Notes under the pieces: model-generated | Seen by the model: only the letters and a program-made list of their open reading frames with translations | What the model was told of the DNA's origin: nothing | The model's database searches: none | Shown: positions 11,282 through 62,047 of the stretch, piece after piece | How positions within the stretch are numbered: the first letter of the stretch is position 1 | Layout of the letters: every line of letters begins with the position of its first letter | Program-made: the position numbers and the translations under genes | IMG/VR virus record: IMGVR_UViG_3300029305_003510 | Location: 166,856 to 230,855 of that record | Reading direction: 5' to 3' (one strand) | DNA: 64,000 nucleotides | From: a virus | Lineage: Duplodnaviria > Caudoviricetes

Positions 11282-11830
11282 TTACTTCTTATCCTTCTTG
11301 CTGTCAACAACAGCAGAAACCTTGGCAGATTTCTGAGTCTGAGCCCACAGCTTCTTGGCAAGACGCTCGGCCTTCTGACCAAACAACTTCTTCAGCTCAG
11401 CCATGTTCTCCTTCTTGATCTTCTGACCCAGCTTATACTTCTTATAAGCTTTGTGGTTAGCCTTCCTGCCCATCTTCAGAGTGATGATAGTAGTCAGACG
11501 GTTGATCTGGGCGTTCTTGTTCAGATGAACGACATTCAGCTTAGGATTGCTGATATGTACGGCAGCAGCCTCAGAGATGATACCCTGACCAATCAGATAA
11601 TCCTGAGCAGTCAAATATGCGTCGATAACTGCCTCATCCAGATTATCAGCAGACTCATCCATGAGCATCATCTGCAGCATAGTAGGCATGCAGGCATCTG
11701 CGCACTCGCGCATAAACTCTGCATCTTCCTCGTACATAGCAATATCCTCATCAGTCACAGTGCTGCTCTGCAGTGCAGACTCACTGATGGAACCGTTCGC
11801 GAACTTGCGAAAATTTTCCATGAAGTTCAT
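11282..11830 (-). CDS. Probable internal head protein: acidic propeptide plus basic C-terminal domain
   Basis: ISE|SA, MDE|SA, LDE|AV and ISE|AA motifs in an acidic N-half; Lys-rich C-half. Confidence 0.5.
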   Translation of the reverse strand: MNFMENFRKFANGSISESALQSSTVTDEDIAMYEEDAEFMRECADACMPTMLQMMLMDESADNLDEAVIDAYLTAQDYLIGQGIISEAAAVHISNPKLNVVHLNKNAQINRLTTIITLKMGRKANHKAYKKYKLGQKIKKENMAELKKLFGQKAERLAKKLWAQTQKSAKVSAVVDSKKDKK

Positions 11831-34484: not shown

Positions 34485-36589
34485 TTATACAGCATATTTA
34501 GGTGCTATTACATTACAATCTTCAGTCAGATATTTTGTATTAGCGATATTGGTCAGAAGATACTGAGTCAACAAAAAGTCCTTACTCATATCACGCATAC
34601 ATTTACCTTGCATATTAAGAACGTATGCATTAGAATTGATATATCTTTCTGCATCTTCATTCGACTCTTTTGACCAACATGCTTTTACAGATACAGTATC
34701 TCCATCGTTATTTGATCCCCATCCGGTAAACGTATCACCATATACCAGATGAGATTTTGTGGACTATCTCTTCACCCTGGGTTCCGTTACTCTCAGGGGA
34801 CCTGCGCTTCGACTTATAGCCGCAACCATAAGCCTACTACTTAGTCTCTACATCCTACTCGGGTACATTCCTGTATCCCTTTCTGACACGGTATTCCCGT
34901 CTGGCCTCTCTCCTTCGGGGGAGAGGCTTCAGGCTCTCTTAGTCATCGCATTCAGCTATTTTAAACCATGTGGAATAGCATAGGTGGGATATTCCTATAC
35001 CTAGCCTTATTATAGATGATACCGTTAGCATATAGAATTCTAGATTCTATACACACCGCTTGTTAGGCGTTCACAGGTGTATTCTTTTGAGGGATTACTC
35101 CCAAAGCGACTCCGAAGGTGATACTATACCTCAAGTCCGCTCCCATCTGGCCAATCATTGTATTACTGAACTGGCCAGTTGCCATGAATACATTCAACGG
35201 ATCTCCTTTGATCACCGGATAGTATTCATAGACTTTATCGCCGATTGTGACAGGTTGTGTCTCATTAGTCGTAGATACAAGAATTCGATACGGATTCTGG
35301 CCGTTTGGATTATCAAGAGGATAACGAGTAATGAACACATGTTTATCACTTGCTACACGTTCTGCTACAATATAGAGTATGTCTGTATAAGTAGCAGCTC
35401 GAGTAAATGTAGTGTTATCCTTATTGAATCTTCCTGTTACAGCCATATTGTATCTCTGACCATTTACATCGAGAGGAGTCTTTACAGGATCAAATCGTGT
35501 ATTCGGTGAATTAATAAACTTATTTATCATTCCTGTAATCTGGCTCTCATCATAAGACTCTGTGAAAGTTGTATAGGCTATATTCCCGTCTTGTCCAATC
35601 ACTGGAACTTTACCACCCTGGATAAACTGTGCTTCAAAATATGCTTTCAGTTCATGTACCATAAACGGCATAAAGAGTGAGCAAATGTATGCAAGAGGAA
35701 TAGTAGCATAACCAAACTTCACCTGTACGCGGTCAAGAGAAGTCTTATTTAAATTCGGTGCAGTAATGACAAGACGTGCCGTGTATGGAAGATTCTTACC
35801 CGCCATTGAACGACGAAGCATACCGAACTTAGAAGGCTGACCTTTAACTGTCTTTATCATCAACTCCTGATAGATATCTACCAGAAGTGTCTGTACACGA
35901 GCTTGTGTGATACGGGTCATGCCAGAAAATGTATCCGTATACTGCGAGATAGACTGCGTATAAGAAATGATGTTATTATATTTGCTATTGATGATATTGG
36001 AACTCTTGGACGAGCTTGTAGTAGAAATATTGATATCTCTGTAGAACGGAGGAATCACCGGGAACTTTGTGCAGAAAAGTTTATCTCGGGAATTCTCAAA
36101 GAACTTCTGAATTTCTTTAGTAGTTTCAGTGGTTTTCTCTCTAACTTTAACTTTACCCCAAATCTTGTAAAGAAACTCAGGACCGGAATCGCCATTTTCA
36201 TCTTCAACCAGAGCACCTTCAGTGGTGAGCTTATACTTACCACGAGCATACAGAACATCACAAAGAGTTCTGTCATATGCGGCAAGCTTTACTGCAGCCA
36301 GCGGATACATATAGTGCCCATGAAGATCAATGTAGGCGAAACGGTTTCGTCGATCATATTGAGAAATACCAAAGATCTCATTACTGAGGATACCATCTGA
36401 CGTATATGCTTGCCGATCAAGCATAACTGCGTTTGTACATTCCTGTAGATTGTTTACACGTACAAACTTCTCTACATCCAAAAGATTAGTCCAAAGACCT
36501 TTTTGTGAAGGTTTTGATACTGCAGTTGCCTCATCTAAAGTGTCAGATGGCGACATTTCATATTTCAAACGTCCAATACCGACGGCCAA
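34485..36589 (-). CDS. RNA polymerase beta'-like catalytic subunit (probably virion RNAP), spliced: join(36589..35133, 34707..34485), 559 aa
   Basis: AYIDLHGH, FPVIPPFYR, KFGMLRRSMAGKNLPYTARLVIT, ITRYPL; joining GAC TT to C GAT GGA GAT restores GADFDGD; exon 2 is open for 74 further codons to TAA. Confidence 0.85.
34708..35132 (-). ncRNA. Group I self-splicing intron, 425 nt, no ORF
   Basis: R element GUAGAGACUAA (34851-34841); S element GAAGAGAUAGUCC (34773-34761); IGS at 35125-35106 pairs with both exons; U.G pair at the 5' splice site; P9 hairpin at about 34754-34715. Confidence 0.85.
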
Positions 36590-39440: not shown

Positions 39441-39571
39441 TTGGGATTCACCCCTCTTCTTTTATGAAGTTATACTGATGTCGCCCTAATCTTTTATGAT
39501 TAGAAAAAGAATTAGAGTATGAAAATTTCAGGGACATTCATATAATGTTAATTAAGAAGAGGTGAAAACGC

Positions 39572-40810
39572 ATGGCGAATTGCCCTTATTGTCGAAAATA
39601 TTTTTCTTTGAAAAAGGATGCAATTTCACACATTGAAAAATATCATAGTCGAGAACTTGAGCAATCTGAAATGGATGCGGCTCAGTCTCTATATTTTTCC
39701 GTACATGGTAAGTTGAGCAGTAAATGCCAATGTGGCTGCGGGAAAGATACTGAATGGAATCCAAAAACTGGTAAACCTTATAAGGTATCTCCCGACCCCG
39801 AGTGTAGAGCTCGTCTTCGTAAGATTGCACAGGCAAACCTTATGAGTGCTCGTGGTATCGATCAGCATACATTGATGAGTGATATGGCACATCAGAAAGA
39901 AATGCAAAAGAATCGAAAGATTTCTGGTAAATATACTTTCAAGACAGATGGAGGGTCTGTCGAGTATATGGGTAAACTGGAACTTAACTGGTTAAAGTTC
40001 TGCGATACTGTATTGGATCTTCCCTCGAGATGTATTCAGGATCCTCCTCAGAATTTCACTTATTATGACAGCAAGGATAAAGTTGAGCGAACCTACATGC
40101 CCGATTTCTATATGCCGGATTATAATCTCATTGTAGAGATCAAGGATGGAGGGGATCATCCGAATGGTAATCCTAAATTCATCGAAGAGACGAAGTATAA
40201 GGTTGCCATGAAGGATGAATTGATGAAGAAGCAAACCGACTTCAACTACATCCGTATTAGTGGCACTAATTATGGTCCGTTCCTGGAAGCTCTCTATCAG
40301 ATCGTTCATGAACAGAAAGATGACGATATGAAAAAACGTAAAGCTGTTATCGTTATCACTGAATCTGCTTGTAGTGAACCAATGGAAGATATCGATTGGA
40401 ACCAGGAAGAAGAGATTGATGTAGATCGTATTCGTCTTTTGGTTGGGTATGTTGAAGGTACTACTATGCCCGCATATTATGCTATTTCTGATTCTCGTAT
40501 CGGCGCAAGCTGGTATGTCACCGACCGTATGAATCTAAGACTGTATCAAGCAGCACATGATGATCCTATCTTTGCTGAGGGTGGATATAGAATCTACAAA
40601 TATGTCGGTAACAAGAAGGATATGCAGGATGCTTTCCGTACTATCATTAAAGTAGTGGAGGCTCCACATGAATTCAATGATATCCTTGCCATTATGGGCG
40701 GATTTGGTATCTGCTTTGATGACAGTTTAGGAAACTCTAATAATTTGATCCATAAATCTCATTTTATTCTCTTAGAAGAATATTTTATGACTGGAGGTGA
40801 AGAAGAATGA
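39572..40810 (+). CDS. C2H2 zinc finger plus PD-(D/E)XK endonuclease-like protein
   Basis: CPYC...HIEKYH; CQCGCG; YMPDFY...IVEIKD; ITE|SA before a separate C-terminal domain. Confidence 0.65.
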   Translation: MANCPYCRKYFSLKKDAISHIEKYHSRELEQSEMDAAQSLYFSVHGKLSSKCQCGCGKDTEWNPKTGKPYKVSPDPECRARLRKIAQANLMSARGIDQHTLMSDMAHQKEMQKNRKISGKYTFKTDGGSVEYMGKLELNWLKFCDTVLDLPSRCIQDPPQNFTYYDSKDKVERTYMPDFYMPDYNLIVEIKDGGDHPNGNPKFIEETKYKVAMKDELMKKQTDFNYIRISGTNYGPFLEALYQIVHEQKDDDMKKRKAVIVITESACSEPMEDIDWNQEEEIDVDRIRLLVGYVEGTTMPAYYAISDSRIGASWYVTDRMNLRLYQAAHDDPIFAEGGYRIYKYVGNKKDMQDAFRTIIKVVEAPHEFNDILAIMGGFGICFDDSLGNSNNLIHKSHFILLEEYFMTGGEEE

Positions 40811-42627
40811 GTGTATTTCATCAGATGGCTGTACATCCGAAGAATTCATTGGTAACAAGAATTGATGTTGCTGAGGAAGATATCTCTCTTCTGGATGTAG
40901 AAGATGAGGAGTCTGTAACTCCTGAGAATGAACCCGTTGCTGATATCCTACAAAATGAGAATGCGCAGTGGGATCTAATCGGTGATAGTAAACCAAGTGT
41001 TGTCGTGGTAGATGTAATTAATCCTGATAAGATCTCTTTGCTCGATCGTACTCCAGATGAAGGTCTTGACATTGAGGAAGAAATGGAGGGGCCTTCCGGT
41101 ATTATGGAGTATTATAATGAAGCAGCGCTAAAGAGTAAGGATCGAAATGCTCTTCCTGATGACGCATTCGGTATTCCTCGTCTCCGCGCATATCCTCTGA
41201 ATGATAAAGCGCATGTCCAGCAGGCTATTCGAATGTTCGGACACTGCAAAGATAAGAAAGATAAGAAACAACTTGCCTCTCGTATTTTTGCGGCTATGGA
41301 AAAGTTCGATGTAAATACAAAGATCGGAAAGAACAATGCTCTCTATGAATATGCACCGGAAGCTCTACGAGAGACAGATGAGGTACCGAAGATGGTTATT
41401 ACTGGTCTTGGTACACCTATCACGAAGAGAACACGTAAACAGGTAGTAGAAGAACATATGCGACTCAATCGTGCATATTACAATAATATCTTCTATGGCC
41501 CTGAGTTCGCTAAATCGGTGCAGGCTTTGAAAGAGTTCTCATTCTTGGATTACTTCTGGCCGGATCTTCAGAGAATGACATTCTCTACCAGATTGGAAAC
41601 AGTCTGCGGTGGTATGGCTTCTGCAGCTGTAGCTGATACGATGTTCCATAATCTTGGAATTAGAAAGCCCCTTTGTACCGATTTTACAAAACCTCTTGGT
41701 TGGGCTGATATCACAGATAAGGATTCTCATGACGATATCAGTGAAGTCCTGTACTACACGGAATATGATACAGAAGCTAACTGGTTCAAGGCTGATCTGA
41801 GTAAAGATCTAAACCATAATTTCTTCTGTATGCGACTGTATAGTATTATGGGAGAAATTCTGTTGGATCCCAATTTTGATCCCTCTGTGAATCTGACTGG
41901 TAAACACCATGCATTGCTGATGGATTGGAGCCAGAAAGTATCATATCACTATGACCTCTATTTGGATGCTAAACCGGATAGTCAGGAGCAGATCAACCAG
42001 ATGCAGTATCTCTGGGATCTCTTCTGGTGTTATCTGGATAGCCCGTATACAAAAGAGTCGATGTATACAAATCTGATCCATCTGATTCAGAATATGGCTT
42101 GCATTCGTGATAAAGTTGTCAGTATGAATGAGGCTAATGATCCTGGTGAACTAGTGAGTAGAGATCGTTGCTCTGCGTATCTGGTACATGAGCTTGGCAT
42201 GCCGGATAGTATCTTCTTGCTTCCGGATACGATGGAGTATCCAATCATCGATAGGACTTCTGTTAGATTGGCGATGGATATGGTTAGTCGTATTCCTGCA
42301 GATCAAGTTGAGCAATATGTGAAGAATCTGAATCAGAAGTATAAAGAACTAGGATGCAACTTCTCCATCAGTGTGGATCATCCCTTTGCTCGATATGCCG
42401 ATGAAAATATTATCGAGCATATGAGCCATATGTTGCTGGAAGATAATACAGCTGTGGATGATGAGGGAACAAGCACTGGTAGACCAGAGCGAGTTACTCA
42501 GCCTTGGTATAAGAGACTGGATCATAATAAAGGTCTTGATATCAATGTGCTGGATAATCATGAGCTTGGCCCTAATCAGAAGAAAGTTGCAGATCCCGAA
42601 TACACTGTACATACTTCGATTCTGTAA
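40807..42627 (+). CDS. Probable virion protein with two DUF6582-like repeats
   Basis: LKSKDRNALPDDAFGIPRLRAYPLNDKAHVQQAIRMF and the degenerate copy MPDSIFLLPDTMEYPIIDRTSVRLA; acidic N-terminus ending YNE|AA. Confidence 0.6.
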   Translation: MSVFHQMAVHPKNSLVTRIDVAEEDISLLDVEDEESVTPENEPVADILQNENAQWDLIGDSKPSVVVVDVINPDKISLLDRTPDEGLDIEEEMEGPSGIMEYYNEAALKSKDRNALPDDAFGIPRLRAYPLNDKAHVQQAIRMFGHCKDKKDKKQLASRIFAAMEKFDVNTKIGKNNALYEYAPEALRETDEVPKMVITGLGTPITKRTRKQVVEEHMRLNRAYYNNIFYGPEFAKSVQALKEFSFLDYFWPDLQRMTFSTRLETVCGGMASAAVADTMFHNLGIRKPLCTDFTKPLGWADITDKDSHDDISEVLYYTEYDTEANWFKADLSKDLNHNFFCMRLYSIMGEILLDPNFDPSVNLTGKHHALLMDWSQKVSYHYDLYLDAKPDSQEQINQMQYLWDLFWCYLDSPYTKESMYTNLIHLIQNMACIRDKVVSMNEANDPGELVSRDRCSAYLVHELGMPDSIFLLPDTMEYPIIDRTSVRLAMDMVSRIPADQVEQYVKNLNQKYKELGCNFSISVDHPFARYADENIIEHMSHMLLEDNTAVDDEGTSTGRPERVTQPWYKRLDHNKGLDINVLDNHELGPNQKKVADPEYTVHTSIL

Positions 42628-42640
42628 GTGAGGTATACCT

Positions 42641-45600
42641 ATGAATAGAATCTGGATTGGTGCTGACTGGCACTTATACAATATCAGCAATGATGTTCGT
42701 CATCCATTCTATTCACGTTACAAGATTGGTAAGTTTGCAGAAAACTTTGCACAGAACATCCAGGATGATGATCTTCTCATCTTCCTGGGTGATCTTTGTG
42801 ATCCTGCAGTAACTAAGCTTGATGATGTGGCTAGTGTCATTCGTGAGATTCCTTGTTATAAGATTATGTGCAGAGGAAACCACGATATACAGGATGATGA
42901 TTTCTATAAAGAGATCGGGTTCGATGAAGTAACAGAGGTGCTTCGAATCCATAATATGCTTTTCTCCCATAAACCGATGAAGGTAGCTCCAGATGAAATC
43001 AATATCCACGCACATCTTCATACCGAAAAATTAGTAACCAGTGGATATCAGCATATCAATGCATATGCAGCTAACTGGAATGAAGATGGTGGACTGATTC
43101 TTCTGGAAGATCTTCTAGATGCTGCTTCGAATCAGCAGATTGAAATTAAGCCCAGAGAAGTCTCTCATATTCAGGAGAAGTTCGAAAAATATACAACAAT
43201 CGAGAGCGACGTATATACAAAGATTCGTGATATCTCTGATGAGTTTATGCTCTGCCCGATTGATGAAGCTTCTAGCATGCTTAAACTGCCCGATTTTAAG
43301 TCTCCCGAAGAACTTAGCCGGTGGATGAAAGCTAATATCAAATATGCCAATTTCAGTAAAATGAAAACGGCTGATAAGGTGCTGAGGGATAGACGCGGTT
43401 CTTGTCATGATCAGGTTGTTTTAGCATATCCTCTTCTGAAAGGTATGGGATTATATCCAAAGATTCTTTTCTTTGTTGCATATAAAGATGGGGAACCTGG
43501 CGGTGGTATGACTCATACTCTCATATACTGGGAAGATGGCAATAAAATCAAATGGTTTGAGAATGCTATGGGTGGTATGGAAGGAATTCATACTTTCAAT
43601 TCCGTTGATGACATGAAAGATGAAATCCGTAAAATCTATGCTAATATGCCCGATAGTAAAAAATATCCTGAACTATATTTCAAAAATATCAGCATCGGTC
43701 AATTCTATCCGGATTGTAATTTGGGTGAATTTGTAGAAGATATCGTCGATGATAAACTTGATGAAGCTCAAGATGAACCTCTTGATGAGATTCTCTTCCC
43801 TGATGTAGAGTCTACTAAGTATTGGCTGAACGATGATAAATCTTTCCGTAAGAAAGCGGATAAAGGAGATGCAGAAGCGGCTGATACTGCTGGTGTAGCT
43901 ATTGATGAATCTGTAACACTCTATAGATACACATATAACGGTAGAGGTATTTATAACGAGTTAAAAGATGCTATGCCATTTGAAGATTGGAAAAAGCTGA
44001 AAAGAACGAATACTTTATCTTGGCTCCCCGTTCCTGATGTATACGATCAGTCTGATGTAAAATATACGTCATTCTTCACAGATGTAGGTAAACGTACATT
44101 TGACCGCAAGGTACTCCCTCTTATTGATAAATATCTGGATAGCAATAAAGTTGCTCTTACAAGCTATGATCTAAAAGATAGTGATGATATTGCCTATTCT
44201 GATAAATATCAAACCGTAATTCCTGCTGATAGAGTTACAAATTGTACTACTATCAATGAGGCTGTTGCTGATACACATTCGCTTGACCGTGAACAGAAGA
44301 AAGAGGTCGCCGATAAGTACGGTCTTCGTAATGTAGGCGCATCTTCTGAGGCTGAAGAGGAAGAACGAAAGGCCAATGAGGAAAAAGAAAAGCATAAGAA
44401 AGAAGAAGAGCGTATTAAAGTGCTTGAGAAGAAACGTAAAGATCATCTCAAGAATTTGAAAAAGGCTCGTAAAGCTAAAAAGAGAAAGGCGTTCAAGAAA
44501 AAGGTTGCTTCTAAACTTCCTGGGATTATCCATGAGAGTGTAGATACTGGAGATGCTAAGTATCTCGATTATCCTGAGGTAGATCATACTGAACTCTGGG
44601 GTGATCGTATTCAGTTCTTTGAACCGAAAGAACGATATGAGAACCCTAGAGCAGTCGATGAGACTAAATCTATCCAGGAGTCCTATATATTCGAAATGAC
44701 TGAGCATATTCAATTCTTCGATCGGATAAACGAATCGTATTCAAATGATAAGCTCTATCCGGTCTATATTATGCTAATGCACTCTGGTACTGCGCTAGCT
44801 AATGCGATTAAGAAAGTAACTCAATCGCAATTCTCTCACTGCAGTATTAGCTTTGACTCTTCTATGCATCAGATGTATTCCTTTGGTCGTAAGTTTGATC
44901 TTAATCCTTTCATCGGTGGATTTAAGAAAGAAGATATCAGAGCAGAATTCTTCCAAAATAAACAGATTCCATATGCCCTGTATGTAGTGCCTTGTACACA
45001 GGATCAGATTGCAGCAATGAAGAAGCGTCTTGAATACTTTGTCAAGAATGCTACAAAATTCCGATACGACTTCACTGGTCTGTTGAAGAACTACTTTGGT
45101 ATTGCTGATAATCCTGAGTATAAATGGTTCTGCAGCCGTTTCGTTGCAGATATTCTAAATGCAGGTAGACCTTCTCCAGAGCCATATATCGTTGAACCAT
45201 CACTGATGAAGCCTGAAGACTTCCGTTACACCACTTTTGCTCAATATGTAACGGGTGGTTATCTGAGCAATTATCACCAGAAGTTTGTAGATAATGTAAC
45301 AAAACGGATTCTGCGAACCGAGATGATGAAGCAGCAGAAGATAACTAAGATCGAAGATCAGTTCAATGAAACTGCATATGGTCTGGATAGAGATAATCCC
45401 TGGGCGATCGACGTATTGAACTATCAGCTCACTATAATGGATGAGTCGGTAATAGACACATTCCTTCAGTATCTACAGTCATTTAAAATCCGATTCAGTA
45501 AGAATGGTGACATTCTTGTCACTAGACGGGAATATGATCAACTTGATACTCACTTCAGGAACTCACTGAAGATGATCAAGGCTCATGAGAAAGCTGGTAA

Positions 45601-45904
45601 TGTAGATGGTGTGAAAGATGAGCTTTGTAAGATCTACTATATGATCGATCTCATCAATAAATATTATCTGCGTGATGATGTAAAGAATATGAGACCGAAT
45701 GCAAAAGATGTTCGCAAGGATATGTTGGATCTTCGGTCTGTTATGCTAAATGTCTTCCAGCAACATCTCAAGTATGTTACCACACGTGAACCGAGGTGGA
45801 ATTTCAATACGTACTATGATAATAGTAAATATGGAAAAAATGTTACCATTCCTCAGAAGGTTATTACCTCTGTTGGCAAGGCTATTGTCACTGTACTAAA
45901 GTAA
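42641..45904 (+). CDS. Multidomain protein: metallophosphoesterase, transglutaminase-like, unknown, Lys-rich, permuted NlpC/P60 (YiiX-like) and helical domains
   Basis: GADWH/GD/GNHD/SH/HAHLH; GSCHDQ...THT...WFE; FSHCSI...WFCSRFVA. Confidence 0.75.
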   Translation: MNRIWIGADWHLYNISNDVRHPFYSRYKIGKFAENFAQNIQDDDLLIFLGDLCDPAVTKLDDVASVIREIPCYKIMCRGNHDIQDDDFYKEIGFDEVTEVLRIHNMLFSHKPMKVAPDEINIHAHLHTEKLVTSGYQHINAYAANWNEDGGLILLEDLLDAASNQQIEIKPREVSHIQEKFEKYTTIESDVYTKIRDISDEFMLCPIDEASSMLKLPDFKSPEELSRWMKANIKYANFSKMKTADKVLRDRRGSCHDQVVLAYPLLKGMGLYPKILFFVAYKDGEPGGGMTHTLIYWEDGNKIKWFENAMGGMEGIHTFNSVDDMKDEIRKIYANMPDSKKYPELYFKNISIGQFYPDCNLGEFVEDIVDDKLDEAQDEPLDEILFPDVESTKYWLNDDKSFRKKADKGDAEAADTAGVAIDESVTLYRYTYNGRGIYNELKDAMPFEDWKKLKRTNTLSWLPVPDVYDQSDVKYTSFFTDVGKRTFDRKVLPLIDKYLDSNKVALTSYDLKDSDDIAYSDKYQTVIPADRVTNCTTINEAVADTHSLDREQKKEVADKYGLRNVGASSEAEEEERKANEEKEKHKKEEERIKVLEKKRKDHLKNLKKARKAKKRKAFKKKVASKLPGIIHESVDTGDAKYLDYPEVDHTELWGDRIQFFEPKERYENPRAVDETKSIQESYIFEMTEHIQFFDRINESYSNDKLYPVYIMLMHSGTALANAIKKVTQSQFSHCSISFDSSMHQMYSFGRKFDLNPFIGGFKKEDIRAEFFQNKQIPYALYVVPCTQDQIAAMKKRLEYFVKNATKFRYDFTGLLKNYFGIADNPEYKWFCSRFVADILNAGRPSPEPYIVEPSLMKPEDFRYTTFAQYVTGGYLSNYHQKFVDNVTKRILRTEMMKQQKITKIEDQFNETAYGLDRDNPWAIDVLNYQLTIMDESVIDTFLQYLQSFKIRFSKNGDILVTRREYDQLDTHFRNSLKMIKAHEKAGNVDGVKDELCKIYYMIDLINKYYLRDDVKNMRPNAKDVRKDMLDLRSVMLNVFQQHLKYVTTREPRWNFNTYYDNSKYGKNVTIPQKVITSVGKAIVTVLK

Positions 45905-45910
45905 AGATTA

Positions 45911-45950
45911 TATCCCCGGAGAATCTGATTCTCCGGGGATATTCTATTTT
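45911..45950 (+). terminator. Intrinsic terminator
   Basis: TATCCCCGGAGAAT-ctg-ATTCTCCGGGGATA followed by a T-rich tail. Confidence 0.75.
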
Positions 45951-60541: not shown

Positions 60542-62047
60542 TCAACTATCTGTATCATAGATAGCGTCGAATAGCATGTCCCCGGAAGATCTCAATGCAC
60601 TCTTTGCTTTAGACTTCTTTCCAGGTTTACGACGTTTCTTAATATTAGCTGGGTGGAATGGATTATCATAATCATTATTATGATTAGCAAGAAAACTTTG
60701 AAATCCGGCCATCAGATAATATTCAGGATTATTCTTAACCCGTTCACGTTTATCAGCCTCCCAAGCTTCTCTCTTTGTAATCTTACGAGGCATAAGCTGC
60801 ACAAACCCATCCACATCCCGCAGAGTATTATCTTCTCGGATTTTAAGCTTAAAGAAACCATCTTCATCAAGGTTTGTCCAATCGATACAAAGGTCTCGGT
60901 AAGATTCGACAATTCCCTCTTGTTCAGCGATCATCTTTTGCGCTTTAGCATATGCATTTTTGGCTTTATCACTATTACCATGAATCGCATACGCATGCCA
61001 TGATTGAAGAGAATCTTTTACATTGTCAGTCGTAATGCGACCGTGCTTAATCATCTTTACTTGGCGCTTTGTTCTTTTCAACATTTTATTGATACTCTTA
61101 CTACGGATATATGTATTAACCTGATGTGTATTAGCATCATACACTACATGATATCCCAGGAAACAAACACCCTGAGCAAATGGATGAATATGAGTCTTTG
61201 GATTCAATTTCATGAGAAGAATATCTTCAACATATTTCTTAATTTCTTTATAGCAATACTCAAGATATTCTCGACTCTCATGAATCATATAGAAATCATC
61301 CATATAACGACCGTAGCACTTAATATGTAGTTTCTCTTTGATAAAATGATCGAGCACGTTTAAGTAATATACAGCAAGCCACTGAGATGTCTGAAATCCA
61401 ATACATAACCCTTTACCAGGCTTTTCTACATATGGATTGATATCAGCTGTACATGCATCGATTACCAGTCGAATTAGTCTTGATAATTTCTTATCTACTG
61501 GTAGATTCTTAACCATACTCCAACAGACTTCATGATCAATATTGTAGAAAAACTTTGTAATATCACATACTAGAACCCATCCCCTGTCGGTCCAGTCTAC
61601 ACTCTTTGCATGGATTCGCATAAATCGTTCCAATCTTTGTAGACCAAGATGTGTACCTTTCTTTGGCTGACTGGCATAGTTATCGTATATCATCTTATTA
61701 CCAAGAAGATGTCTCAATACATTCTTGGATAATAAGTCTTGTACAATTTTATCTTCAAATCCATCGGCAACAACTTCCCGTTCTTTTGGCTCATATACTT
61801 TGAAACGATTCAGATCACCAAATTCATATTTCTCACCACATAGCTTCTTATAAAGCTTACGAAGATTTTGATACATGTTCATATGATACTGAATCGTAGA
61901 AGTTCGATATATTTTACCCTTACGAACGTGTTTATATGATTTCAACAGATTCTGAAAAGTGACGACATCCTCAAATCGTATCACTTCACCATTCTTTAAT
62001 CGCTGAAGAGGAATCGGAACTTCCTCACGTTTTGAATATTTGCCCAT
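60542..62047 (-). CDS. DGR reverse transcriptase with a C-terminal extension
   Basis: KEREV, YASQPKKGTH, CDITKFF, GLCIGFQTSQ (DGR-type GxxxSQ), RYMDDF, FLGY. Confidence 0.95.
   Translation of the reverse strand: MGKYSKREEVPIPLQRLKNGEVIRFEDVVTFQNLLKSYKHVRKGKIYRTSTIQYHMNMYQNLRKLYKKLCGEKYEFGDLNRFKVYEPKEREVVADGFEDKIVQDLLSKNVLRHLLGNKMIYDNYASQPKKGTHLGLQRLERFMRIHAKSVDWTDRGWVLVCDITKFFYNIDHEVCWSMVKNLPVDKKLSRLIRLVIDACTADINPYVEKPGKGLCIGFQTSQWLAVYYLNVLDHFIKEKLHIKCYGRYMDDFYMIHESREYLEYCYKEIKKYVEDILLMKLNPKTHIHPFAQGVCFLGYHVVYDANTHQVNTYIRSKSINKMLKRTKRQVKMIKHGRITTDNVKDSLQSWHAYAIHGNSDKAKNAYAKAQKMIAEQEGIVESYRDLCIDWTNLDEDGFFKLKIREDNTLRDVDGFVQLMPRKITKREAWEADKRERVKNNPEYYLMAGFQSFLANHNNDYDNPFHPANIKKRRKPGKKSKAKSALRSSGDMLFDAIYDTDS

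Follow-up and report, generated by a model that had tools for sequence, protein, structure and literature searches.

The 64,000-nucleotide stretch analysed here, referred to below as the window, is the 3' end of a 230,855-bp viral contig (IMG/VR record IMGVR_UViG_3300029305_003510, positions 166,856 to 230,855; G+C content 41%). It carries a gene for a protein of 1087 amino acids, which joins several enzyme domains in one chain and is preceded by the ribosome-binding site GAGG, 8-9 nucleotides 5' of the ATG. A sequence-only reading of this gene had proposed that it encodes a virion polyprotein, the domains of which are separated by copies of the motif [ILVFM][DNHQ]E[SAT], where a head protease would cut after the Glu. 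We followed up this proposal by computational analysis of the protein, its homologs and the rest of the phage genome. The gene and its parts are listed below in window coordinates, an arrow marking the presumed cut after the Glu.

42641..45904, plus strand: polyprotein gene (P0001), reading frame open for 1087 amino acids
42641..43267, plus strand: module 1, metallophosphoesterase, residues 1-209, matching PF00149, phrog_547 and structure 1xm7; ends at IDE↓A
43268..43765, plus strand: module 2, transglutaminase-like Cys-protease/N-acetyltransferase fold, residues 210-375; ends at LDE↓A
43766..43909, plus strand: spacer with one long helix (389-416), residues 376-423, which recurs alone in homologs; ends at IDE↓S
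43910..44260, plus strand: module 3, alpha/beta, residues 424-540, a variable cassette position; ends at INE↓A
44261..44536, plus strand: module 4, Lys-rich single long helix (569-625), residues 541-632; ends at IHE↓S
44537..44734, plus strand: long disordered linker, residues 633-698, with the three sites VDE↓T, IQE↓S and INE↓S
44735..45370, plus strand: module 5, permuted papain-like domain (YiiX/C92-type NlpC/P60), residues 699-910; ends at FNE↓T
45371..45901, plus strand: C-terminal part, residues 911-1087, with a short helix, the site MDE↓S (933-936) and a helical domain

Module 1 scored 26.6 bits against PF00149 (cut-off 21.5), and the model of its residues 1-163 matched 1xm7 with a Z-score of 15.3 and a root-mean-square deviation (rmsd) of 2.8 over 154 residues. 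The metal-binding motifs DxH, GD, GNHD and HxH are present (GADWH, GDLCD, GNHD and HAHLH), and the module is predicted to belong to the calcineurin-like metallophosphoesterase family. Module 2 reached 20.6 bits with PF01841, below the cut-off of 23, and its fold matched CPR-C4 (Z 11.4), vasohibin (Z 10.1), PeiW (Z 9.5) and arylamine N-acetyltransferases (Z 9.2); its G-x-C-x-D motif and its His are conserved in the A2 consensus. The Pfam scan of the polyprotein gave no profile match for module 5. The model of this module matched 3kw0 (Z 12.5; 153 amino acids, rmsd 3.1), YiiX (2if6, Z 12.2) and the type VI secretion system effector TseH (Z 9.1), with a Foldseek probability of 1.00, and its His733 precedes Cys831, both being invariant in 78 of 78 sequences. 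Module 5 is thus modelled as a permuted NlpC/P60 domain of the YaeF/YiiX, peptidase C92 type. A match of residues 699-842 to phrog_1128, 'enoyl-CoA hydratase-like', was set aside as a family label that conflicts with the fold result. The three enzyme calls of the sequence-only reading (metallophosphoesterase, transglutaminase-like Cys-His domain and permuted NlpC/P60 domain) are therefore all borne out by fold Z-scores, and the first of them also by its Pfam score. The fold search with module 3 gave no diagnostic match, and the C-terminal helical domain matched generic three-helix bundles with non-diagnostic Z-scores of 7-9.6; for both parts this was a weak test, as larger domains filled the match lists.

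All ten motif copies that had been located, by the first base of each motif, were recovered, with their Glu at residues 209, 375, 423, 540, 632, 674, 680, 698, 910 and 935. The amino acid composition of the protein predicts 0.63 copies, and none of 5000 shuffled sequences reached ten. Among the 220 open reading frames (ORFs) of the genome, the polyprotein accounts for 1.6% of the residues but for 10 of the 64 motif copies (Poisson P = 1.6e-9), and the runner-up ORF has 3 copies for 0.36 expected. The 120 closest homologs together contain 650 strict copies, compared to 110 expected. Seven of the ten sites (209, 375, 423, 540, 680, 698 and 935) occur in about 50% or more of the aligned homologs; E698 is present in 60 of 62 sequences, the INE↓S site in 51 of 58 aligned rows and the MDE↓S site (933-936) in 49 of 65.

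An unbiased scan, in which every a-x-b-c pattern was scored across approximately 225 family members and identical 11-mer contexts were counted once, ranked I-x-E-S first of all gapped tetrapeptides (252 occurrences for 60 expected). LxES, LxEA, VxES and MxES also came near the top, and the remaining top patterns were catalytic motifs of the conserved domains. Positions that had not been selected for were biased as well, with Pro enriched 2.9-fold at P4, Asn/Asp about 2.5-fold at P2 and Ala 4.1-fold at P2'. The sites prefer Pro, Ala, Thr or Ser at P4, Asn, Asp, Gln or Thr at P2 and Ala, Val or Thr at P2', where Asp, Glu, Pro and Arg are avoided, which gives the overall form [P/A/T/S]-[M/I/L/V]-[N/D/Q/T]-E↓[S/A]-[A/V/T]. 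This pattern looks like a recognition site of about six residues. Chance, or a motif chosen post hoc, was considered as an explanation and rejected, since the unbiased scan and a site matrix trained without the polyprotein give the same signal.

To place the sites in the folded protein, structures were predicted with AlphaFold2 for the two halves separately, using alignments of homologous segments (mean predicted local distance difference test, pLDDT, of 79.8 and 80.1). A single whole-length alignment was discarded because most of its N-terminal fragments were misplaced (identities of 9-15%). For module 3, 9 of 10 added homology fragments were still misaligned (13-21% identity), which leaves the model of this module with a shallow alignment. 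The blocks modelled with confidence are residues 1-207, 213-373, the helix 389-416, 424-540, the Lys-rich helix 569-625, 706-907 and a helical region at about 922-1076. Segments with pLDDT below 50 (208-212, 374-387, 415-423, 465-471, 530-548, 631-644, 660-686, 689-700, 908-912 and 1077-1079) make up about 10% of the chain, and nine of the ten P1 Glu residues (209, 375, 423, 540, 632, 674, 680, 698 and 910) fall in them. The sites had been said to sit at the domain boundaries, and these nine do lie in low-confidence linkers rather than buried within folds. The models also agree with the earlier placement of an unknown domain between IDE↓S and INE↓A and of IHE↓S behind the Lys-rich helix.

A short motif confined to linkers might serve other purposes than cleavage, for instance as a docking or head-targeting peptide, or as a linker signature that travels with the modules, the protein acting as one multi-enzyme chain. 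Cleavage is deduced here and not observed, and the N4 virion RNA polymerase, itself a polyvalent protein, is packaged uncut (PMC5512222). However, approximately six constrained residues in otherwise unrelated linkers, with a fixed Glu and small residues after it, are what a protease site would look like, and the same pattern is found where the removal of propeptides from head proteins is expected, as described below. We regard an uncleaved motif as quite unlikely, and less likely than processing in the head.

An exhaustive profile search returned 3104 cluster representatives at a threshold of E<=0.001, of which 196 also passed E<=1e-30; their lengths are mostly in the range of 1000-2900 residues. 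The metallophosphoesterase is usually N-terminal in these homologs, the block of helix, papain-like module and C-terminal domain is usually found at the C-terminal end, and the middle is variable. The papain-like module occurs in nearly all recovered relatives, and the C-terminal helical domain is at the C-terminus in nearly all architectures that have it. Module 3 is kept in only about 11-14 of the 120 close homologs and recurs elsewhere in distant proteins. Long homologs carry inserts, namely one or two GNAT domains, NUDIX, AAA_33 P-loop, DUF362 and extra transglutaminase-like domains; in four long homologs, high-scoring sites are found on either side of the Pfam domains and in no case inside them. 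Hidden Markov models of five modules revealed about 40 architectures, including reversed orders and duplications, the order being shuffled in distant members.

The sites avoid the module cores, where none of 780 high-scoring sites was found in members of canonical layout (378 expected) and 7 of 302 in the others (118 expected). BLAST homology segments have 698 internal ends in all, and 524 of these (75%) are no more than 10 residues away from a site, compared to 128 expected (18%). The comparison of orthologs that had been suggested as a check thus indicates that modules are exchanged, with the breakpoints at the sites. In the distant relatives P0159-P0251, which lack the C-terminal domain and have a different order, A-x-E-S is enriched (51 for 16 expected) alongside I/V-x-E-S. 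Because of this enrichment in distant architectures, there are hints that the linker motif follows the protease specificity of each clade.

The DNA polymerase encoded in the window is of family B, split and divergent; further genes code for a chaperonin, an SbcC-like ATPase and a large terminase of the T4 type, which shares 30-36% identity with the terminases of Bacillus PBS1/AR9-type, Staphylococcus jumbo and Erwinia jumbo phages. Based on the terminase identity and this gene content, the DNA appears to come from a jumbo phage, as yet uncultured, of the AR9/PBS1/phiKZ-related assemblage. Capsid genes homologous to that of this phage were found on 220-260-kb contigs from gut metagenomes, some of which were binned with metagenome-assembled genomes of Muribaculaceae, Duncaniella and Ruminococcus. 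The capsid and portal genes of the phage were located by comparison with the annotated AR9 genome and by tblastn. They and the candidate protease gene are given here in genome coordinates.

genome 157135-158010, minus strand: predicted head maturation protease, 291 amino acids, matching phrog_207 (2.4e-12) and phrog_3014 (2.3e-9)
genome 160239-161903: capsid gene, located by AR9 comparison and tblastn
genome 14728-16977: portal gene, located by AR9 comparison and tblastn

The protease gene adjoins the scaffold-like and capsid genes; it directly precedes the capsid operon and is read from the other strand, which is also the case in AR9. Its product scored 18 bits, a weak match, with Pfam Peptidase_S80, the family of phiKZ gp175 (cut-off 23.4). 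A six-frame search of the genome with Pfam S77 (PF03420), the T4 protease family, gave no match, nor did a tblastn search of the genome with the AR9 protease exons or a sequence search of the 291-amino-acid protein against solved structures. From its PHROG matches and its gene neighbourhood, the phage is predicted to encode a head protease of the gp21/gp175 type.

A site matrix was then built from the homolog sites, leaving out the polyprotein, and the whole proteome was scanned, sites with a score of at least 10 being called high-scoring. The protease, scaffold-like, capsid and portal proteins together contain 3.5 such sites per 1000 residues, compared to 0.39 in the rest of the proteome (9-fold, P = 1.7e-5), 0.24 in shuffled sequence and 6.4 in the polyprotein. 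One site of the protease, E212, is close to the C-terminal end, where gp21, gp175 and gp245 each have a peptide removed. In the scaffold-like protein, sites cluster at 200-234, and the capsid protein has three in its first 97 residues. In the portal, three sites lie in the first 325 residues, and the portal of SPN3US loses a propeptide of 254 residues (PMC10052503). The last of the capsid sites, E97 (consensus L-(N/S)-E↓S-A), immediately precedes the highly conserved core and occurs in 101 of 120 homologs; at a comparable position, the AR9 capsid protein reads ILQE↓S. These positions make sense as putative sites of head maturation. As far as can be judged from sequence, the linker motif is the same motif as in the head proteins and at the conserved boundary of the capsid propeptide. 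The motif had been likened to the sites of both T4 and phiKZ-type head proteases, and only the first half of this comparison holds: the hydrophobic P3 matches the L/I-X-E after which T4 gp21 cleaves (PMC9026906), whereas the phiKZ group, including SPN3US, cleaves after S/A/G-X-E (PMC10052503). The lineage thus looks T4-like at P3.

The sites in the head proteins also bear on the question of which enzyme would cut the polyprotein. It might process itself, as a polyvalent protein in which the transglutaminase-like or the permuted NlpC/P60 fold cuts the linkers in cis or in trans, whether packaged or not. Both Cys folds are present with conserved catalytic Cys and His, module 2 has its nearest structural matches among genuine proteases (CPR-C4, LapG and vasohibin), and the near-universal presence of the papain-like module among the relatives would suit such a role. 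Autoproteolytic release has been proposed for polyvalent proteins (PMC5512222), and a Cys peptidase would here parallel the zincin domain to which it was ascribed. On the other hand, the motif is enriched in the protease, scaffold-like, capsid and portal proteins, none of which has a Cys-peptidase domain, and is conserved at the capsid propeptide boundary. The enrichment is also retained in members without the papain-like module (18 copies for 5.2 expected in P0163 and 10 for 3.6 in P0217) and in 20 members without the transglutaminase-like module, and cleavage after hydrophobic-x-Glu is a known habit of gp21-type proteases (PMC9026906). We consider self-processing unlikely, although it is the main rival to cleavage by the head protease.

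The polyprotein gene is the last of three genes that appear to form an operon with a late-type promoter. The other features of this operon are as follows.

39533..39545, plus strand: late-type promoter motif GACATTCATATAA (RACW-N4-TATAA), 27 nucleotides 5' of the first operon gene
39572..40810, plus strand: endonuclease-like gene, 412 amino acids, phrog_15137 at 3.5e-34
40807..42627, plus strand: DUF6582-like gene, 606 amino acids, with one high-scoring site at E442 (VVSMNE↓ANDP)
45910..45942, plus strand: hairpin terminator with a 15-bp stem, directly 3' of the polyprotein gene, closing the operon

The order is thus endonuclease-like gene, DUF6582-like gene, polyprotein gene and terminator. 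The three genes are arranged likewise in a 249.6-kb relative (L006), except that two small genes separate the DUF6582-like gene from the polyprotein gene there. The motif RACW-N4-TATAA occurs in 41 copies genome-wide, 28 of which are located 3-112 nucleotides upstream of gene starts; the genes behind it include the scaffold-like/capsid operon, one virion structural protein, the terminase and the polyprotein operon. The matrix scan found one high-scoring site in the endonuclease-like protein as well (E264, VIVITE↓SACS), and both this protein and the DUF6582-like protein may be packaged too.

Late-type expression would suit a late function in the cytoplasm as well as one in the virion. The polyprotein might therefore be cut outside the prohead, by the head-type or another protease, and never be packaged, its enzymes acting late in the cell; packaging is inferred, without direct evidence. 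However, the characterised proteases of the gp21/gp175 type work in the assembled prohead (PMC9026906, PMC10052503), the constant position of the C-terminal domain and the usually N-terminal metallophosphoesterase suggest a constraint from assembly, and making late cytoplasmic enzymes as one chain to be cut brings no obvious benefit. Such a cytoplasmic polyprotein is improbable in our view, and is likewise placed below a packaged one.

Three further proteins of the genome have high-scoring sites or late-type features. A 182-amino-acid protein (window 11282-11830, minus strand), without a match in Pfam, has a late-type promoter motif 5' of its gene and four high-scoring sites (E17, E59, E66 and E87), and possibly serves as a small protein of the head core or scaffold that is cleaved into fragments. 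A 497-amino-acid protein (window 35063-36556, minus strand), also with a late-type promoter motif 5' of its gene, has a very strong site at residue 9 (SDTLDE↓ATAV); as T4 internal proteins have similar short capsid-targeting peptides at their N-termini, this may be another packaged protein. A 394-amino-acid late protein (G000:C1:35395-36579, minus strand) has three sites in its first 61 residues (E11, E32 and E61), a pattern suggestive of an N-terminal propeptide that is cut repeatedly. Elsewhere in the genome, a reverse transcriptase gene (RVT_1, 8e-14) lies near the window end (window 60542-62047, minus strand), and the largest open frame is a single one of 3565 codons (G000:C1:54326-65023, minus strand).

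Taken together, we consider it probable, with a likelihood of roughly 0.6, that the gene encodes a late, packaged polyprotein that is cut by a head protease of the gp21/gp175 type. Packing and cutting in the head are most likely because the linkers carry the same cut-after-Glu signal as the expected processing sites of the capsid, portal and scaffold-like proteins. The polyprotein would be made late, together with the head proteins, and built into the prohead, possibly via its positionally fixed C-terminal domain or its N-terminal module. Inside the prohead, the maturation protease would cut after the Glu at the linker sites and release the metallophosphoesterase, the transglutaminase-like Cys hydrolase, a small unknown module, the Lys-rich helix, the YiiX-type hydrolase and the helical C-terminal piece. 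The freed enzymes would then be ejected with the DNA into the host. As guesses from the predicted folds, the phosphoesterase might degrade nucleotide signals or other phosphoesters and the two Cys hydrolases might act on peptidoglycan or host proteins, and the Lys-rich helix might lie on the packaged DNA. In the claim of the sequence-only reading that this is a packaged polyprotein, the linker motif, the module exchange, the head protease and the motif in the head proteins are supported by the present analysis, and the presence in virions, the cleavage, the ejection and any anti-defence or takeover role stay at the level of proposal.

Several observations weigh against such a packaged, head-cleaved polyprotein. 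The head protease is assigned by PHROG only, its S80 score being below the cut-off and S77 giving no match, and the capsid-protein sites of this genome have Ser or Ile at P2 instead of D/N/H/Q. The characterised proteases of the phiKZ group favour S/A/G at P3 and not a hydrophobic residue (PMC10052503). Sites 632, 674 and 910 are lineage-specific and not conserved, and E935 (MDE↓S) is found where two helices meet, in a helical region of moderate confidence (pLDDT about 73). Some alignment rows end at sites, which could depress the local pLDDT, although each site is also crossed by many rows. With their intact catalytic residues, the two Cys-peptidase folds within the chain could cut it themselves. 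Finally, a tblastn search of 50,697 phage records with the whole polyprotein gave no match at E<=1e-5, not even for one module, and hence no homolog in the cultured phiKZ-like and AR9-like phages.

The proposed arrangement shares features with several known systems. In T4, the head is loaded with enzymes such as Alt and with anti-restriction proteins, which gp21 trims and which are ejected along with the DNA (PMC9026906); like these internal proteins, the polyprotein has a hydrophobic-x-Glu site followed by a small residue, and a related protease gene is located beside the capsid gene. However, the packaged T4 proteins are encoded by separate genes and lose short terminal targeting peptides, whereas here about 7-10 sites separate folded enzyme domains in one chain, and the protease matches PHROG head-protease families and not Pfam S77. 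phiKZ, 201phi2-1 and SPN3US (gp175/gp245, MEROPS S80) belong to the same wider phage group and also cut after Glu. In the phiKZ group, long propeptides of the capsid and portal proteins undergo multiple cuts and numerous ejection proteins are packaged (PMC10052503), the P3 residue being Ala, Ser or Gly where it is hydrophobic here. AR9 gp078, an HD phosphohydrolase fused to a virion RNA polymerase subunit, likewise joins an enzyme and a virion component in one chain that is split by proteolysis, and its record states that virions contain the RNA polymerase part alone. This fusion consists of just two parts and is unrelated in sequence to the polyprotein; neither a cleavage site nor a protease is named in its record.

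In its organisation, the polyprotein resembles the polyvalent proteins described by Iyer, Burroughs, Anand, de Souza and Aravind (2017, PMC5512222), for which delivery with the DNA and processing into units were predicted. As in those, many unrelated enzyme domains are combined in one polypeptide, shuffling is extensive and the context is that of phage late genes. Three enzyme folds are predicted in the polyprotein itself, and its homologs add GNAT, NUDIX, AAA_33 and DUF362; the words 'calcineurin' and 'transglutaminase' do not occur in the text of that paper. The published proteins are built around a zincin-like metallopeptidase as the proposed processor, whereas here a defined site of the head-protease type is found in every linker. 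No zincin was listed in the Pfam and PHROG scans of the polyprotein and of four long homologs, and a divergent one might be located in module 3 or in the C-terminal domain. A literature search found no report of a multi-enzyme polyprotein of comparable kind. What appears to be new is the combination, in which folded enzyme domains rather than terminal propeptides are split by 7-10 sites of the head-protease type, with exchange of cassettes across a large uncultured lineage.

Since the site is short and located in linkers, cassettes such as GNAT, NUDIX, AAA and DUF362 could be inserted without disturbing the release of the others. This leads to a broader, tentative proposal, which we hold to be possible but somewhat doubtful: the head-protease site may be a universal connector in a large lineage of uncultured gut jumbo phages, any inserted cassette being packaged, released and delivered with the genome, and the connector following the clade's own protease in distant clades. 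If so, the polyprotein gene would be a plug-and-play locus for injected counter-defence or takeover enzymes.

All implications depend on cleavage and packaging, both of which are proposed here from indirect evidence. If they hold, polyvalent proteins, known from computational prediction, and the experimentally established trimming after Glu in T4 and the phiKZ group would be joined by one mechanism, in which a single gene gives rise to several packaged enzymes through the action of the capsid maturation protease. The same sites might provide a packaging rule, and thus a simple design for loading foreign proteins into the heads of jumbo phages. In uncultured phages, they would mark the head cargo as well as the start and end of each mature enzyme, and would yield a catalogue of candidate injected enzymes that comprises phosphoesterase, GNAT, NUDIX, P-loop and Cys hydrolase modules.

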